From Escherichia phage LinBro, in the sequence record OR896830.1: a stretch of DNA of 64,000 bases; one strand, 5' to 3'. Below the pieces are notes generated by a model. The model did not search any database, had not been told where the DNA came from, and saw only the letters and a list, made by a program, of their open reading frames with translations. Positions 29,852-49,421 of this stretch are shown piece after piece; within the stretch, counting starts at the first letter, position 1; the number at the start of each line of letters is the position of its first letter. The position numbers and the translations under genes were made by a program.

Positions 29852-30408
29852 TTAGTGTACTTCAAGCCAATTCTTACCAACTTTACCAGTACCAGTTACA
29901 AGCGTTTCCTCCTTAAGTCCTAAGTTTCTTGATGCCTGACCATACATCCAGTCAATCACTGCTTTAACATCTTGTGTCATCTCTTCTGGGCACTCCCAAC
30001 TGTTCTCATCGTGGTATGCTAGAAGCAATCTAGCACCAATAGCTGGTTTTCGACCATTCAGCTTTGTAAGACCCTCTTCACAAGTTCTTCTACAAGCGAG
30101 GTTGATGGCTTCATTCTGAACCTGACTTTCCGAACCCATGAGCAGATAATTCAATAGTTTGTGTGGAGATTTACACCACAACCATGCACCAGCAACCTTT
30201 ACAAAACCACCTTTAGAGATTGCAGCAGTCTTACCAAATACCTCTTCAAGAGCCTTCTTAGTGGCTTTGAAGTCAGCTTCCAAATTATCTATCAACTTTT
30301 TAATCTTAGGGAGGCGTACAAAGTAAGTTTGCTTAGTTAAAGCACCTTCTTCGGTTGTTGATGCTTTAATCGTCTTGGCAAACTTCTCATCACCTGCCCC
30401 AAACAATA
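29852..30408 (-). CDS. DNA polymerase (family A), exon 2
   Basis: Begins LFGAGDEK (end of O-helix/motif B) and contains motif C LLLAYHDE; joined in frame to exon 1 by predicted splicing. Confidence 0.7.
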
Positions 30409-31209
30409 CATCTGGTCAATACACTCGCAAGGTGTACCAGTTCTCTTATGAACTTCTCCGCATTTCTACGGAGTGTCGGACTATATCACGTAGTAGTAAT
30501 ACTACCGTTGCACTTGGGAATGGTCATTAGCTTACCACCCTACTCTACTCAGTTCATACATTAAGTATGCTTTTCGATAGTCTCTGAACGTTTCTCTGTT
30601 AGGAACTCTAAAATACTATTGTTTACTAAGGTATGCAATTGCTCTCTGCATATTATCAACGCTATCTGCAAGCAACCCCAAAGCCCTATTGCAATTGTGG
30701 CACAACATACCTCTTACTTTTCCGGTTTTGTGGTCATGGTCAACGACAAGTTTAGCCTTATGCCGTGAACTATTCATGATAAAACCTTCACCGCCACAAA
30801 TTTGACATTTGTAATCACAGTTACGAAGTAGGGTTTCAACCTCTTCTCTTTCTAAACCATATGTTCTCAGGTAGTAATTCTTAACTCTACCTTTCTCTCC
30901 GCAATGCGAAGAACAATAAACTTGCCTTGCTGTTCTAGGCATGAACACCTTCTCACAGCTAGGACATTTCTTAGTAAGAACCCTATGTTCTGCTCTTCTG
31001 TCAAATTTTAATACGCAACTTCTGCACCGTTTTTGATTGTATTGGTATGGTTTAAACTCTGCACCACACTCAGTACACAATCTCTCTTTGTAACCTGCCA
31101 TTGTCTCTCTCCTTTGCTTTAGGAGTCCTAACAGAGACTTCGCTGCTGATTACCATATCTTTACAGACTTAGGCTTCCAGCAATTCACAACGTTTTACAT
31201 GCGCCACTG
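30409..31209 (-). mobile_element. group I intron interrupting the DNA polymerase gene (carries an HNH ORF)
   Basis: Exon 1 ends in U (31210) and intron ends in G (30409); P1 helix exon UAUGCGU with guide GCGCAUG (31204-31198); core elements GTTCAGAGACTA (30589-30578) and GATATAGTCC (30487-30478) on - strand; exon lengths sum in frame (2173+557=2730). Confidence 0.75.
30616..31101 (-). CDS. intron-encoded HNH / endonuclease VII-family homing endonuclease
   Basis: Cys-rich zinc ribbons (CTECG, CRSC, CPSC, CQIC) and VVDHDHKTGKVRGMLCHNCNRALG catalytic motif. Confidence 0.7.
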   Translation of the reverse strand: MAGYKERLCTECGAEFKPYQYNQKRCRSCVLKFDRRAEHRVLTKKCPSCEKVFMPRTARQVYCSSHCGEKGRVKNYYLRTYGLEREEVETLLRNCDYKCQICGGEGFIMNSSRHKAKLVVDHDHKTGKVRGMLCHNCNRALGLLADSVDNMQRAIAYLSKQ

Positions 31210-33382
31210 ACGCATAAATGCCATTCTTGGCTTTCTTACGACCCTTACTAATTTCTTGAAGAAGGTTTGTATCCTGAGTAGCTCGACAAGTCAAGATATC
31301 TTCCTCTTTATTAAGGCTGAAGTAGATGCTATTTAAAGTATGCGCATCAGTTCCTGAGTACACCACGTACAAGTCATTTTCAGAATCATAATGCAAATAC
31401 TTGTCAATCTCTGGGTTTAGATACTGGTCAAAATGTTTGCAATAGTATCTGCCATCCTCTTGTTTGACAAACTCAACTTCTTCTTTACCCTCTGTCACTG
31501 CTTTGGTGAACTCTTTATCACCCATAAAGTTACACAGCAGTACAAGTTGCGCGCTATTCATATCTGCTGAAACAATATTAGTTCCTTCTTCACAAGTCCA
31601 CACCTCCCTCATAGGTGCTCCATAGACAGCAGCACCAGACGGTACGTTTACAATACCATATTGTGTCATACGTCCAGTTGAAGTACCAAACACCATTGCA
31701 CCAGCACTAAGGCGACCATCAGGACGAATCTGGTTCAACCAACCTTTTTCATCATCTTTTGAGTTCTCAATAGTTCTGCGTCGGTGCATTAAAGTATAGT
31801 ACTTAGCAATCTTCTGTCCAAGCTCACCTTCAATCGTATCATAAGATGATTCAGTAAGTTTTGGTGAAGTACGGATTAAGCAAGGCTCAAGCAAATCTGT
31901 GTACTTCTTCACAGACCAGTTATGCTCAATGTACTGTACACCTTCATGTTCAACATAACTCAAACCACACCGCTCAACCATTTCCTGCCACTTAGGATGC
32001 TTTGTAATCATCTTTTTATTGTCTTTGAAACGACAAACTTTAACAGGGCGACCATCTGAGTCTTTCTTGTAGTTCCAGTCATCTGGAATCCAACCAACTG
32101 ATTTCAAGTAGTCTTTAACAACTGCTACCTGAGTCATACGAGAAACTTCGAACTCAATTGGTGTATATGGTGCATCAATCAAACCTGTGTAGCGACTTGA
32201 CTCAAGTTCAAAGTGATTGACAACGTGACTGTTATAGTACTTCACAGTCTTGACTGTTTTTACTGGTTTCCAGTCTTTGCATTTTTTGCCAATCTTTGCA
32301 TTCAACTCGTTGCAGATTGCACGAGCATCCTTCATCGCTACAAAACCCTCTTTGTACTCTTCACCAGTTACAGAGTTGGTTGGTGTATAGCAATTTCTCT
32401 TTTCAATGTTAAAAATCTTTGTAGTTGGCTTACCAAATGGTTTGATTTCATAAGTCTGCATCTCACCATTACGTACCTGCTGACGGTACTTTGTCTTAGG
32501 GTACTTGGTAATTCTCTTCAGTCCATCTGCATGACCAAATGTTTCAACATACTCATTCCAAGCTTTTGCAAACTCTTCTCCAGTCACTTTACCTTTGGTC
32601 TTAATAGTTGGAGGTAGATGTGGTTCAACCTCTGAAGCAAGCTCATTAGTCAACTTGTCAAGTTCCTTTACATGGAACTCCATAAGCTCCTTATCAGCTT
32701 TCCAACCATTGATAGCTTGTTGACTCATCCAGAAAGATGTTTCTTTAGCTCGCATATAGGTTTCATAAGTATCTATGCCACACTTCTTAAGCTTGAGATA
32801 CTCATTATCAAGTGCCCGTTTAGTTTTGGCGTTAATACGGATATCTTCTACAACACGAGTGAAGATTTCTGCATTCCACACACCCCAATGTTCAATCTCT
32901 GGTTTACGGACACCAACACGAGCACCCCATGCAGCCAAACCATGAGCACCTTTATAACCCTTTGGGGTTGGCCTATCCATCCACTGAACACGAGACTGGA
33001 TAAGAGAATCCTGAAAGAAATTACTCCACGGCTTACATTTTGGATTATCAAAGTTCCATAAATCAGGCGCAATGTGATTGAAAACCCACCAGTCATAGCC
33101 GAGACCATTATGGATGCAAAGACGTTTTGCCTTTAACGCAAATTCAACACCTTCACGTAAGCCGCCCTTGATGTACTTAGTGTACTTGTGACCGAGGATA
33201 GGTTCATCTGTAAAGACCCATACAGGTGGCTCTTCATCATCAGATTTATAGTCTGCGAAAGCCATTACGTGCACTTTAGTGAACTCAAGGAGTAAACCAT
33301 CAGTTTCTGTATCACCAACCAAATGTAAGTTTTTAAAATCTACGTTTTCCATTTTTACTCCCTCTAAAATCATTAACCTCAT
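31210..33382 (-). CDS. DNA polymerase (family A), exon 1 with 3'-5' exonuclease domain
   Basis: Exo I motif HLVGDTETDGL near N-terminus; motif A-like IVSADMNSAQL; motif B start RKKAKNGIY just before the splice site; the track ORF continues 41 nt into the intron to stop at 31169. Confidence 0.75.
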
Positions 33383-46534: not shown

Positions 46535-47731
46535 ATGAACAAAGTACAGATTATTAAAAAGAATGGCTCACTTGAAGAACCCGATATCAAAAAAGTTTTA
46601 GCAGCAGTAACTAAGTCAGCTAACAGGGTTGGATATAAAGAACTTCCACCAGATGTTACCCAAGCTCTTGAGTCAGCATTTATGAGGATTCTGGTAAAGT
46701 CCACTAAGCAGAATAATTTGCTCATCTCGGTAAATGATATTCACAGTATTGTTGAGGGTGCTTTGGCAGAAGTCAATCACGAGATTTATGAGTCTTACTC
46801 AACATATAGAAATTACCGTAAAGAGGTTGCTCAAAATTGGGACGAGCTTTACCAAAAGACTAGGGATACACTCTTCTTAGGTGACCGTGAAAATGCTAAC
46901 TTTGACAGTAGTTTAATTTCTACAAAAGGCTCAATTATTCGTGGTTACTTGACTAAAGAAATCTTTAAACAGTACCATTTAACACCAGAGGAACTTGAAG
47001 CCATTGAAAAAGGGTTTATCTACATCCATGACTTAAGAGACCTAATTTTTGGTGGTATCAACTGTTGCCTGTTTGACATCGGCAAAGTACTGAAAGGTGG
47101 CTTTGAAATGTCTGGTATCGAATACTGTGAACCAAAGTCTGTGCTGTCAGCCTTACAGGTTATTGGTGATGTAGTTCTTTCAGCAACTGCACAGCAATTT
47201 GGTGGCTTTACTTTAGCAGAGATTGATAAGGTACTTGTGCCGTATGCTAAAAAATCTTTAGTGTACCACTCAGAGAAAGCTGAAGAGTACGGAATCCCTA
47301 AAGAGCAACACTATAATTACGTAATGGAGCAATTACAGAATGAGTTAACACAAGGTTTCCAATCTCTTGAAATGAAACTCAACACTGTTCCTTGCAGTCG
47401 CGGTGATTTTGCATTTACTACTCTGACATTTGGCCTGTTGGAACCAGATATGCACAATGAAGATAACCGTCTTCAGTTTATGATTGCTAATACAATCCTT
47501 AATGTAAGGATGAACGGGCAAGGGAAAAGCAAAAAACCTGTTGTTTTTCCTAAACTTGTGTATATCTATGAAGAGACAAGACATAAACTTGATGTATGCC
47601 AAGCAAGGTTGTTTGAAAAAGCTATTGAGTGTTGCTCTAAAGCGATGTATCCAGATTTCTTAAGTGTATCTGGTCATGGTGCTGTAGCAGATGCTTTTGA
47701 GCGTTCTGGTAAGGTGATTTCACCGATGGGT
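46535..47731 (+). CDS. nrdD: anaerobic ribonucleotide reductase (class III), exon 1
   Basis: N-terminal ATP-cone; exon ends ...KVISPMG with final nt U at 47731, before the in-frame stop at 47732-47734 that lies in the intron. Confidence 0.75.
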
Positions 47732-48473
47732 TAACAAGCTCTATAGCTCATCTAAAACGTGCCTAAACAGGGAAACTCTACAGATGTAGACAATCCTGTG
47801 CTAAATGATGTACGATGTAAGAAACTATACAACATAGGAGTCTTACATGCCAAACTATCACGTCACTGAAGATGGAAAAGTCTTTAGGGAAAATGGTGTA
47901 GAGCTTACGCAGTGGAAATCCAACACTGGGTATATGAAAGTGAGGTTTTACGGTAAGAAGAATCGTGACATGTATGTCCACAGGTTAGTTGCTGAGAAAT
48001 ATGTACCTAACCCGAACAATCTTCCAATTGTAAAACATAAGGACGATAACAAACTAAATAACCACGTATCTAACTTAGAATGGGGTACTCATTCTGATAA
48101 TGCTAAAGAAGGTTATGAGAATGGATGTTACAAGTTCCACAAGCGTTCATATGCCGTGAAAGCCACACACAAAGTGACAAAGGAAGTTATTGTTACTAAG
48201 TCAATACGAGAGTTATCCAATATACTTGGATACAATCGCAAGACCATCTCTTCAATATTGAAGGGTGTAAAAGAGCATAATAACTTCGAATATGAGTTTG
48301 AATACATCTAAATGCCGAACGACTAACCGTGATGAATGTAGCGGTGTAGGGTCAAGCGACTCGAAATGGTACGCTACTTAGAAATAAGTAGAAGATATAG
48401 TCTGGACTTACTGGCGACAGTAAGCAGCTTGAATAAAGCGGGGTAAGCTTAGCGAACTTACCTGAACAATAAG
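47732..48473 (+). mobile_element. group I intron interrupting nrdD (carries an HNH ORF)
   Basis: Exon 1 ends in U, intron ends in G (aag at 48471-48473); P1 helix exon GATGGGT with guide GCTCATC (47746-47752); core elements GAACGACTAA (48317-48326) and AAGATATAGTC (48391-48401); join gives ISPMG|CRAFLSP. Confidence 0.75.
47847..48311 (+). CDS. intron-encoded HNH homing endonuclease
   Basis: 154 aa; VHRLVAEKY...HKDDNKLNNHVSNLEWGTHSDN typical of the HNH_3-type family. Confidence 0.7.
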   Translation: MPNYHVTEDGKVFRENGVELTQWKSNTGYMKVRFYGKKNRDMYVHRLVAEKYVPNPNNLPIVKHKDDNKLNNHVSNLEWGTHSDNAKEGYENGCYKFHKRSYAVKATHKVTKEVIVTKSIRELSNILGYNRKTISSILKGVKEHNNFEYEFEYI

Positions 48474-49421
48474 TGTAGAGCATTTTTATCACCATACCAT
48501 AACGAATATGGTGAAGAGTTTTATGTAGGTCGTGCTAACATTGGTGCTGTATCTTTGAACTTACCAATGATTTACCAGTATTCTAAAGAGAATGGTTTAG
48601 ATTTCTGGAAAGAGCTTGATAAGTACCTAGAGATGATTCGCAGCTTCCACAAGAAACGCTACGAAATGATTGCTAATATGCCAGCAAGCTCTAACCCTCT
48701 TGCATTCACACAAGGTGGCCTGTACAAAGGGACTAAGAAATCTACCGACAAGGTTGGCTGGGATATCGTGAAGTCCTTCACAGCTTCTTTTGGAGTTACT
48801 GCGCTTGATGAGCTATCTGTTCTTGCTGAAGGTAAACGACTTCATGAAGTTGGGAGCTATAGTTTTGCATACGATGTTCTGGCATACATCAACATGAAAA
48901 CTGAAGAGTTTAAAAATGAAGATGGCTTCTTATATGCTGTCTATGGTACTCCAGCAGAATCACTTTGTGGAACTCAACTAAAACAGTTCAGAGAAATGTT
49001 TGGTGTTATCAAAGGTGTTTCTGACAAGGAATACTTTACAAACAGTTTCCATATGAATGTTGCAGCAGACATCTCACCATTTGAGAAGCAGGACTTAGAA
49101 GAGCCATTCTTCCATATCTGTAGAGGTGGCAGAATCCAGTATGTCAGGGTAGCTAACCCAGAAAACTTAACAGCACTTAAGAGTTGTATTACAAGAGGGA
49201 TGTTGAAAGGTTTTTATCAGGGACTTAACTTTGACCTAGCAATTTGTGAGCATTGTGGTAGCAGACCAAAGGCTGATGTTGAAGAATGTGAGGTTTGCCA
49301 TTCACATGACATCTCTGTGATTAACAGGGTGTGCGGATATCTGGGATGGACTAAGATTAAAGGTGAATCCCGAATGAATGATGCAAAAATCGCTGAGATT
49401 CGTGACAGGATTTCTATGTAA
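48474..49421 (+). CDS. nrdD: anaerobic ribonucleotide reductase (class III), exon 2
   Basis: Begins CRAFLSP...GRANIGAVSLNLP; C-terminal CxxC zinc site and glycyl-radical motif RVCGYLG. Confidence 0.75.
   Translation, partial: CRAFLSPYHNEYGEEFYVGRANIGAVSLNLPMIYQYSKENGLDFWKELDKYLEMIRSFHKKRYEMIANMPASSNPLAFTQGGLYKGTKKSTDKVGWDIVKSFTASFGVTALDELSVLAEGKRLHEVGSYSFAYDVLAYINMKTEEFKNEDGFLYAVYGTPAESLCGTQLKQFREMFGVIKGVSDKEYFTNSFHMNVAADISPFEKQDLEEPFFHICRGGRIQYVRVANPENLTALKSCITRGMLKGFYQGLNFDLAICEHCGSRPKADVEECEVCHSHDISVINRVCGYLGWTKIKGESRMNDAKIAEIRDRISM

Follow-up and report, generated by a model that had tools for sequence, protein, structure and literature searches.

We identified a group I intron of subgroup IA2 in the family A DNA polymerase gene of Escherichia phage LinBro (OR896830.1), with a predicted homing endonuclease gene in one of its loops. 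The analysis covered a stretch of 64,000 nucleotides (nt) of this phage, which we call the window and to which all coordinates refer. An earlier reading of these letters, made without database searches and here called the sequence-only reading, had proposed a group I intron with an open reading frame (ORF) of the endonuclease VII type at this place. The exact point of insertion, the Rfam scores of alleles lacking the ORF, the secondary structure, the restored polymerase product and the Pfam matches all bear this out. In our view, the element is very probably a mobile group IA2 intron that is competent to splice, resides in a family A polymerase gene and carries its own homing endonuclease gene.

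The window comes from a Felixounavirus (Ounavirinae, a Felix O1-like myovirus). The 3.6-kb region under study matches 261 phage records, nearly all of them Felixounavirus, whose hosts are E. coli, Salmonella and Shigella. Among these records the closest match is Escherichia phage vB_EcoM_LNA6 (97.9%).

Insertion site and restored polymerase

The polymerase gene, an essential one, is encoded on the minus strand in two frames (Table 1). The ORF in the frame of exon 1 (33382..31169, 737 amino acids, aa) includes the 3'-5' exonuclease domain, motif A and the first half of motif B (the O-helix). It reads ...GRKKAKNGIYA, exon 1 itself ending with RKKAKNGIYA and nucleotide 1 of a Leu codon, and then runs for 38 nt into the insert up to a UAA stop, i.e., 41 nt counting the stop, as the sequence-only reading had it. 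The UAA terminates translation of unspliced RNA. The ORF in the frame of exon 2 (30406..29852, 184 aa) resumes at 30406 with (L)FGAGDEK and includes AYHDE, also as proposed. The first two bases of exon 2, UA, finish the Leu codon, and are followed by LFGAGDEK (the remaining O-helix), motif C (AYHDE), the C-terminus and the stop codon (29854-29852).

In-silico removal of 31209..30409, which joins U31210 to U30408, gave a 2730-nt frame with one terminal stop. The predicted sum of the exons (2173 + 557 = 2730 nt, 909 aa, a single terminal stop) was therefore recovered, but the start at 33382 from which it had been counted is probably not the true one. There are three candidate starts on the minus strand (33382, 33373 and 33352). 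The ATG at 33352, probably the real start, has a strong Shine-Dalgarno sequence (GAGGGAG), the best of the three, and gives 899 aa; its equivalent is the annotated start in REP8, Si3 and JH2. The ATG at 33373 would yield 906 aa, the length annotated for Felix O1 and wV8.

Joining the exons restores a recognisable polymerase. The two halves matched the Pfam profile DNA_pol_A (PF00476) with 18.7 and 27.3 bits, both below the cutoff of 34.3 bits, and the in-silico spliced protein with 59.1 bits. Membership of family A was hence found only after in-silico splicing. The O-helix of T7 gp5 as quoted in the sequence-only reading was correct: the protein in the PDB has RDNAKTFIYGFLYGAGDEK, which aligns without gaps with GRKKAKNGIYALLFGAGDEK. 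The alignment of the joined product with T7 gp5 has no gap across the junction (GRKKAKNGIYALLFGAGDEKFAKTI against TRDNAKTFIYGFLYGAGDEKIGQIV, T7 gp5 residues 517-541). Hence, the O-helix is split after base 1 of the codon aligned with T7 F528.

Intronless relatives, searched with the joined exons as query, fix the boundaries. Uninterrupted polymerase genes were found in wV8, the Shigella phages Sf13-Sf18, E. coli typing phage 1 and others, and the record of wV8 gives the polymerase as a single 906-aa coding sequence (CDS). At the site, wV8 reads ...TATGCAC directly followed by TGCTGTTC, whereas the window reads TATGCGT, 801 nt and then TATTGTTT. In the wider alignment, GGTATCTATGCAC and TGCTGTTCGGTGCAGG are contiguous in wV8, and their counterparts in the window, GGCATTTATGCGT and TATTGTTTGGGGCAGG, are separated by the same 801 nt. 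The inserted length is thus precisely the 801 nt that had been predicted. The bases named for the splice sites also hold in a direct reading of the sequence, with U31210 the last of exon 1 and G30409 the last of the intron. The intron starts with CAGUGGCGCAUG and ends with ACCAGAUG, the final base of which (30409) is the terminal G (omega-G).

The junction is conserved at the protein level. K-N-G-I-Y-A-L-L-F-G-A-G is encoded by both wV8 and the window, with the A-L-L junction kept, and a shift of the boundary by one base in either direction turns the conserved Leu into Ser or Val. The predicted ligated junction joins ATTTATGCGT to TATTGTTTGG, with TATGCGTTATTGTT as the sequence that spans it; the intronless site of the wV8/Felix O1-type allele is AATGGTATCTATGCACTGCTGTTCGGTGCAGGTGATGAGAAG. 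All 12 intron-bearing relatives examined share the site and its flanks (TATGCGT before and TATTGTT after the intron). Four synonymous differences adjoining the site (positions -2, -1, +2 and +3) travel with the intron in these 12 phages. Two of the flank differences make a G-C pair and a U.G wobble at the end of helix P1, where intronless alleles have A and C.

Ribozyme architecture

The P1 helix had been predicted to pair UAUGCGU of the exon (31216-31210) with GCGCAUG (31204-31198), an internal guide that begins after the first 5 nt of the intron, and our model retains it. It has 7 base pairs (bp), among them the U31210.G31204 wobble at the 5' splice site, which is invariant in nine distinct Felixounavirus variants; intronless alleles have C at this position. 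P10 is possible as 5 bp between CAGUG (31209-31205), which adjoins the P1 guide, and the first five nucleotides of exon 2, UAUUG (30408-30404). The 5' core consists of the 5' strand of P3 (CGUUGUG), P4 (UGCUGG/UCAGCA), P5/P5a with a GUAA (GNRA) tetraloop, and the 5' strand of P6 (UCUCUGUUAGGA). The 3' strand of P6 is a perfect 12-bp complement of 31137-31126, and P6 closes the loop that contains the ORF.

The two core motifs that had been expected downstream of the ORF are in place, GUUCAGAGACUA at 30589-30578 and GAUAUAGUCC at 30487-30478. Between P7 and the 3' strand of P3 lie two hairpins, P7.1 (30569-30555) and P7.2 (30540-30516), and the linker between them, AACUGAGUAGAGUA, contains GUA. 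Such an arrangement of P7.1, linker and P7.2 characterises subgroup IA2. The 3' domain is made of P9 (CUCCGUA-GAAA-UGCGGAG), P9.1 (GUUC-AUAAGA-GAAC), P9.2 (GGUACAC/GUGUAUU) and a tail, GACCAGAUG, that leads to G30409. For P9.2, the continuous GGUACAC/GUGUAUU, the homologue of a helix that covaries in related introns, is preferred to UGGU/ACCA plus ACAC/GUGU. Overall, the element has the features of a group I intron, i.e., a 5' exon U in a U.G wobble, an omega-G, a P10 and a core that scores above the Rfam threshold (via the EC106 allele), together with the P7.1, P7.2 and GUA-containing linker of subgroup IA2.

Table 1. Positions in the window of the polymerase exons, of the intron and its parts, and of the nrdD intron.
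Feature	Coordinates	Strand	Evidence
DNA polymerase (family A) exon 1	31210..33382	minus	ORF list; partial Pfam DNA_pol_A match; alignment with wV8
DNA polymerase exon 2	29852..30408	minus	ORF list; Pfam; in-silico join; alignment with T7
Group I intron, subgroup IA2, 801 nt	30409..31209	minus	Exact insertion relative to wV8; RF00028 scores of ORF-less alleles
P1 hairpin	31198..31216	minus	Sequence reading; invariant in 9 aligned variants; recovered by unconstrained minimum free energy fold
5' core	31126..31192	minus	Rfam alignment; fold; pair counts
UAA stop of the exon 1 frame, inside P5	31169..31171	minus	ORF list; direct reading
Intron-encoded homing endonuclease gene (predicted), 161 aa, in the P6 loop	30616..31101	minus	Pfam; PDB; Yep-phi; dN/dS
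P6 3' strand UCCUAACAGAGA	30593..30604	minus	Alignment; pair counts; sequence reading
J6/7 and P7 5' strand (GUUCAGA-GACUAU)	30577..30589	minus	Rfam alignment; sequence reading
P7.1 (CAUAC/GUAUG) and P7.2 (GGGUGGU/ACCAUUCCC)	30516..30569	minus	Rfam insertion; minimum free energy fold; pair counts
P3 3' strand UGCAACG, P8 GUAGUA-UUAC-UACUAC and P7 3' strand within GAUAUAGUCC	30478..30512	minus	Rfam; pair counts; sequence reading
3' peripheral domain	30409..30473	minus	Sequence reading; covariation across 10 phage introns
nrdD intron	47732..48473	plus	Exon reading; P1; sub-threshold RF00028 pieces
nrdD intron HNH_3 ORF, 154 aa	47847-48311	plus	

A sensitive Rfam scan of the window gave two partial matches to the group I intron model RF00028, of 28.1 and 15.4 bits, which flank the ORF. 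The same model (gathering score of 50) matched the ORF-less alleles of EC106 and REP8 with 62.9 and 61.7 bits (E ~1e-14). The two ribozyme halves of EC106 and Mushroom are those of the window (84/84 and 196/196 nt identical), and those of REP8 are near-identical. The Rfam alignment assigns P1, P3, P4, P5, P6, J6/7, P8, the P7 strand and P9, and leaves a ~60-nt insertion between P7 and the 3' strand of P3, which folds into P7.1 and P7.2.

The unconstrained minimum free energy (MFE) fold, in which the ORF loop was replaced by GAAA, recovers P1, P3, P4, P5/P5a (GUAA), the 12-bp P6, P7.1, P7.2, P8, P9 (GAAA) and P9.1. Its z-score is -4.9, and none of 100 shuffles folds as well. Helix substitutions among the nine variants include compensatory changes from U-A to C-G in P6 (in REP8-type alleles) and in P8, as well as four wobble-compatible single changes (P3, P5a, P7.1 and P8). 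The other variation is in loops and bulges.

Positions 2455-2702 of Erwinia phage MIF8 (PP700702), an N4-like phage (Schitoviridae), hold an unannotated ORF-less group I intron (94.4 bits in Rfam), between a CDS named 'RNAP2-like' and a 'hypothetical protein' that follows it. In P3-P5, this intron shares 81.5% identity with that of the window (positions 15-79 of the latter).

Endonuclease gene, mobility and alternative readings

The ORF in the P6 loop is preceded by an AGGAG Shine-Dalgarno sequence (31113-31109). Its product matched the Pfam profile Endonuclease_7 (PF02945) with 69.3 bits, for a cutoff of 23.6 (E=2.7e-19), and has the CxxC...DHDH...R...CHNCN arrangement, in line with the zinc and nuclease motifs first noticed in the 161-aa ORF. 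The N-terminal half has two CxxC...CxxC zinc ribbons, which presumably serve DNA binding. The C-terminal half is the Endo VII/DHHRN core, with C99, C102, D121-H122-D123-H124, R130, C134, C137 and N138; the four Cys residues (C99, C102, C134 and C137) are the zinc ligands. In the PDB, the ORF matched the catalytic cores of Hpy99I and of T4 endonuclease VII, and it keeps every residue that these use for catalysis and zinc binding. These residues define the 'DHHRN' family (Fang et al. 2018, Mob DNA 9:27, PMC6083498). By its sequence, the product is thus predicted to be an endonuclease VII-type His-Me-finger nuclease. It shares 51% identity over 116 aa with the intron ORF of the T7-like Yersinia phage Yep-phi. 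Among Felixounavirus alleles, the ratio of nonsynonymous to synonymous substitution rates (dN/dS) is 0.03-0.065, so the protein is maintained by selection. We considered a CUCCU...AGGAG hairpin that might mask the Shine-Dalgarno sequence of the endonuclease gene, as happens in T4 intron ORFs, but the local fold is no better than shuffles (z = -0.64).

The intron is present in some Felixounaviruses, reduced in others and missing in many. Of ~261 records that match the polymerase, ~97 have the ribozyme, ~40 with the ORF and ~57 without it. The remaining ~164 had no intron match and presumably lack the intron; this was verified directly for wV8, and the polymerase of Felix O1 is a single gene of 906 aa. 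ORF-less introns have a length of either 311 nt (EC106, Mushroom, NS7) or 268 nt (REP8, REP5, SSBS18). The deletion end-points of these two forms differ, which implies no fewer than two losses of the ORF. The endonuclease ORF of VpaE1 is frameshifted by a deletion of 22 nt. Many Felixounaviruses (REP8, EC106, Si3, Mushroom) also have a free-standing HNH homing endonuclease gene directly 3' of the polymerase, which explains the extra ~500 bp and the two-piece matches among the relatives' matches to the 3.6-kb region; none lies below position 29852 of the window.

The ribozyme is much more similar between phages than the gene that contains it. Comparing the window with EC6, REP8 and EC106, the exon flanks (300 nt on each side) are 74-87% identical, with a proportion of synonymous differences (pS) of 0.5-0.8, and the ribozymes 95-100%. 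Phages with a pS of 0.7-0.8 in the flanking exons (window versus EC6, SP107, EC106 and Si3) have ribozymes that are 99.5-100% identical. EC106 has a wV8-type polymerase (96% and 93% exon identity) plus the intron, and its differences from wV8 are concentrated within 3 nt of the site. Near-identical ribozymes in near-saturated polymerase backgrounds are the signature of mobility and of recent horizontal spread. Near-identical introns in diverged hosts are known for T-even phages.

These data suggest the following cycle. The polymerase gene would be transcribed as one pre-messenger RNA, in which the ribozyme would fold into P1-P10, including P7.1 and P7.2. A free guanosine bound at P7 would attack the phosphodiester after U31210, held in P1 by its U.G pair with the guide; the freed 3'-OH of exon 1, positioned by P10, would then attack after the terminal G30409. 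This would join GCG-U to UA-UUG and restore KNGIYALLFGAGDEK, the O-helix of the fingers domain. Ribosomes on unspliced RNA would halt at the UAA inside P5. The 161-aa protein of the P6 loop would act as a homing endonuclease with zinc ribbons and an endonuclease VII-type core (DHHRN, beta-beta-alpha-metal). In mixed infections, it may cut or nick intronless polymerase alleles near the insertion site, and recombinational repair from the intron-bearing allele would copy the intron in.

Several observations weigh against this reading. At Rfam gathering thresholds, the window gave no RF00028 hit. Covariation within Felixounavirus is thin, with the two compensatory pairs only, since the ribozyme is too conserved. 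The 87-pair model (P1-P10, P7.1 and P7.2), in which 99.9% of the cells are paired and a single cell is broken, was derived from the same nine variants on which it was scored. The endonuclease gene of the EC6/SP107 type differs from that of the window with a pS of 0.73 (~80% aa identity), whereas the surrounding ribozyme is 99.6% identical; a ribozyme much younger than the ORF it contains is not predicted by simple whole-intron homing. Finally, we infer splicing in this phage, and likewise endonuclease activity, from family membership and from reported experiments on the homologous introns of T7-like phages.

The points on Rfam and on covariation could be addressed. The window's own copy misses the gathering score because the 486-nt ORF inside P6 splits the covariance model. 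In the proposed search with group I covariance models, the window copy is below the gathering score and the ORF-less alleles with the same ribozyme are above it. Taking the lack of a hit as a refutation would have misfired, because the ORF sits inside P6, and we rejected the null scan of the whole window as evidence against an intron, given that the ORF-less alleles exceed the gathering score. As to covariation, the Felixounavirus variants are too alike and the model is self-derived, which is why we also aligned the 3' domain with nine much more distant introns of phages, chosen by their common P9.1 motif GUUCAUAAGAGAAC (10 introns with that of the window). In this alignment, 12 of the 18 pairs of P9 and P9.2 are changed on both sides. 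Their covariation score is 0.632, versus 0.205 +/- 0.034 for shuffles, none of which reached it (0/500), and slid registers score at most 0.163.

The intron might splice and the ORF no longer encode a homing nuclease, its product being inactive or domesticated (as a maturase, a regulator or a general resolvase). The ORF of FSL SP-107 has indeed been read as a T4-like endonuclease VII mismatch-repair protein (PMC8300805), and there are decaying or deleted alleles, i.e., the frameshift of VpaE1 and the ~57 records without the ORF. We nevertheless consider this unlikely. The ORF of the window is intact, retains every catalytic residue and evolves under strong purifying selection. It falls among intron-encoded and free-standing homing nucleases and not among resolvases (Fang et al. 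2018, PMC6083498), and its closeness to a T7-like intron ORF (51% identity) argues in the same direction. Its N-terminus carries zinc ribbons, and it matches T4 endonuclease VII in the catalytic core only, the dimerisation domain of the T4 enzyme being absent. The presence/absence pattern and the identical ribozymes in divergent backgrounds fit active or recently active mobility.

The break falls within a codon, in the middle of the O-helix, and exon 2 starts with neither an ATG nor a Shine-Dalgarno sequence (the sole TTG is the Leu of the joined frame). These two facts speak against a polymerase in pieces, the halves of which would be translated separately and assemble without splicing, the insert being a dead intron or a free-standing endonuclease cassette. 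Such a split is what nearly all GenBank and RefSeq records imply, since they give the halves as separate 'DNA polymerase' CDSs. The genome announcement of Mushroom speaks of 'two genes', and split phage enzymes have precedents (e.g., Friedrich et al. 2007, as cited in that announcement). Yet the ribozyme is intact, exceeds the Rfam gathering score in the absence of the ORF and has diverged far less than the exons. It is complete even in the ORF-less alleles, where it would serve no purpose without splicing. We therefore regard separately translated halves as very improbable. An intein or a group II intron can be dismissed: interruption of a highly conserved catalytic motif is typical of inteins too, but the frame meets a stop after 38 nt of the insert and the ORF is read in another frame, which makes an intein impossible, and there is neither a reverse-transcriptase ORF nor a group II match in Rfam, where the only hits are to RF00028.

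Returning to a mobile, splicing group IA2 intron, the mismatch between the ORF and its ribozyme may call for a refinement. The intron of the window looks recombinant, with the body of the ORF Si3-like and the 3' end of the ORF and the 3' half of the ribozyme EC6/EC106-like (breakpoint at ~30650). Both old endonuclease alleles are under purifying selection (dN/dS ~0.05). Cassette-like exchange of the endonuclease gene and short-tract conversion are possibilities to account for the mismatch. Tentatively, and with considerable doubt, we suggest that the ribozyme and the endonuclease gene may have separate histories: a recent sweep of one almost invariant ribozyme (0-4% divergence) through polymerase genes near synonymous saturation, at least two old ORF alleles that recombine as a cassette, and an endonuclease lineage shared with the T7-like gene 5 intron inserted 11 nt away.

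Relation to known introns and annotation

The element is already known, though uncharacterised and still mis-annotated. The whole 3.6-kb region is 89-94% identical in JH2, EC6 and FSL SP-010, which have this element at the identical position. The endonuclease VII-motif ORFs of these phages and of '2 JES-2013' were called intron-encoded (Fang et al. 2018, PMC6083498). That paper covers them in one sentence and a tree, without boundaries, structure, splicing data or a population survey. A literature search for an explicit Felixounavirus polymerase intron returned only this sentence, a count in phage SPJ41 and a note on Mushroom. The count lists, among non-coding RNAs, 'two introns' that are not specified. 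The Mushroom announcement describes a polymerase split by a 383-bp gap without an ORF, which it does not call an intron. Felix O1 is intronless, and its genome paper reports no introns. In RefSeq, JH2 has two polymerase CDSs and an 'endonuclease VII'.

Group IA2 introns with endonuclease ORFs are classic in phage family A polymerase genes (SPO1, SP82, Bastille, PhiI, W31, LUZ24, phiL7, Pf-WMP3). The closest described are the gene 5 introns of T7-like phages (PhiI and W31; the Yersinia phages Berlin, Yepe2 and Yep-phi), which share with the window's intron the gene family, the location in the O-helix/motif B, subgroup IA2 and an ORF in the P6 region. The P9.1 hairpin is identical, but the ribozymes are otherwise dissimilar. 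We placed the boundaries of the Yep-phi intron between AAGACGUU and UAUCUACGG, the intron running from UAACAC to CUAAGG over 680 nt, which agrees with the two-piece joined CDS in RefSeq (704 aa in total). It splits the codon matching T7 F524, whereas that of the window lies 11 nt further downstream, after nucleotide 1 of the T7 F528 codon. The N-terminus of the endonuclease has two zinc ribbons in the window and one in Yep-phi, and the window's phage is a myovirus (Ounavirinae), whereas the T7-like carriers are podoviruses. Splicing and homing of the PhiI and W31 introns were reportedly shown in experiments by Bonocora and Shub in 2004 and 2009, whereas the window's intron is known from its sequence.

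A further example lies in Pectobacterium phage PcaP1EGY (OR599645, 524-3378), a T7-like phage with a gene 5 intron and a homologous endonuclease ORF, where ORF14-ORF16 are all annotated as 'hypothetical protein'.

The endonuclease shares its CX2C...DHDH...R...CX2C-N core with the DHHRN family (prototype F-CphI; T4 endonuclease VII and Hpy99I), and has it at the C-terminus, as in the 'endonuclease clade'. F-CphI is free-standing and adjoins a psbA intron, whereas the ORF of the window is inside its intron. T4 endonuclease VII is a Holliday-junction resolvase with an N-terminal catalytic core, and Hpy99I is a restriction enzyme. The introns of T4 td, nrdB and nrdD and of the SPO1, SP82 and Bastille polymerase genes (with I-HmuI, I-HmuII and I-BasI) are likewise phage IA2 introns, sporadically present in conserved genes of nucleotide metabolism or replication, with optional homing endonuclease ORFs in peripheral loops. 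Their endonucleases are from other families (GIY-YIG and HNH proper), and the SPO1-type insertion site is elsewhere in the polymerase (position 674, E. coli numbering).

In the window, nrdD (anaerobic ribonucleotide reductase, 46535-49421, plus strand) is likewise split by a group I intron that carries a homing endonuclease gene. Exon 1 ends with ...GKVISPMG at U47731 and exon 2 opens with CRAFLSPYH at 48474. The intron has 742 nt; its first bases, UAA, are an in-frame stop, its last base is G, and P1 pairs GAUGGGU of the exon with GCUCAUC. The RF00028 pieces are sub-threshold (15.6 and 33.1 bits). Relatives have the full intron, an ORF-less form or no intron (e.g., Felix O1), and published accounts of the locus mention a 'free-standing' endonuclease or a 'split nrdD'. 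A 42-nt piece of the core of this intron (48308-48352) is 97.6% identical to unannotated sequence in many Tequatrovirus genomes, presumably one of their group I introns. We found no transfer RNA (tRNA) genes in the 64-kb window; Felix O1-like phages encode ~22, and their cluster must therefore lie outside it.

Nothing in the polymerase intron challenges what is known of group I introns in phage polymerase genes. If the ribozyme and the endonuclease gene do have separate histories, they would be a natural example of the model credited to Bonocora and Shub, in which introns and homing endonucleases are said to target the same conserved sequence independently and then to unite, with an endonuclease that also moved across phage families. 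The competition of two introns for one homing site would then become testable. There is also a consequence for annotation: ~97 Felixounavirus records in GenBank and RefSeq are affected, having two polymerase CDSs and an 'endonuclease VII', at times taken for a repair enzyme. They should instead show a single joined polymerase CDS, an intron and a homing endonuclease gene. As these phages have often been put forward for the biocontrol of Salmonella and E. coli, a correct annotation of their replication genes is of some practical value. All stages of the homing cycle occur within this one genus of more than 250 genomes, i.e., the empty site, the full intron, a frameshifted ORF and two different ORF deletions, and the same pattern is found in nrdD. 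The introns of Felixounavirus are therefore a convenient natural system to study the dynamics of introns and of their endonuclease genes.

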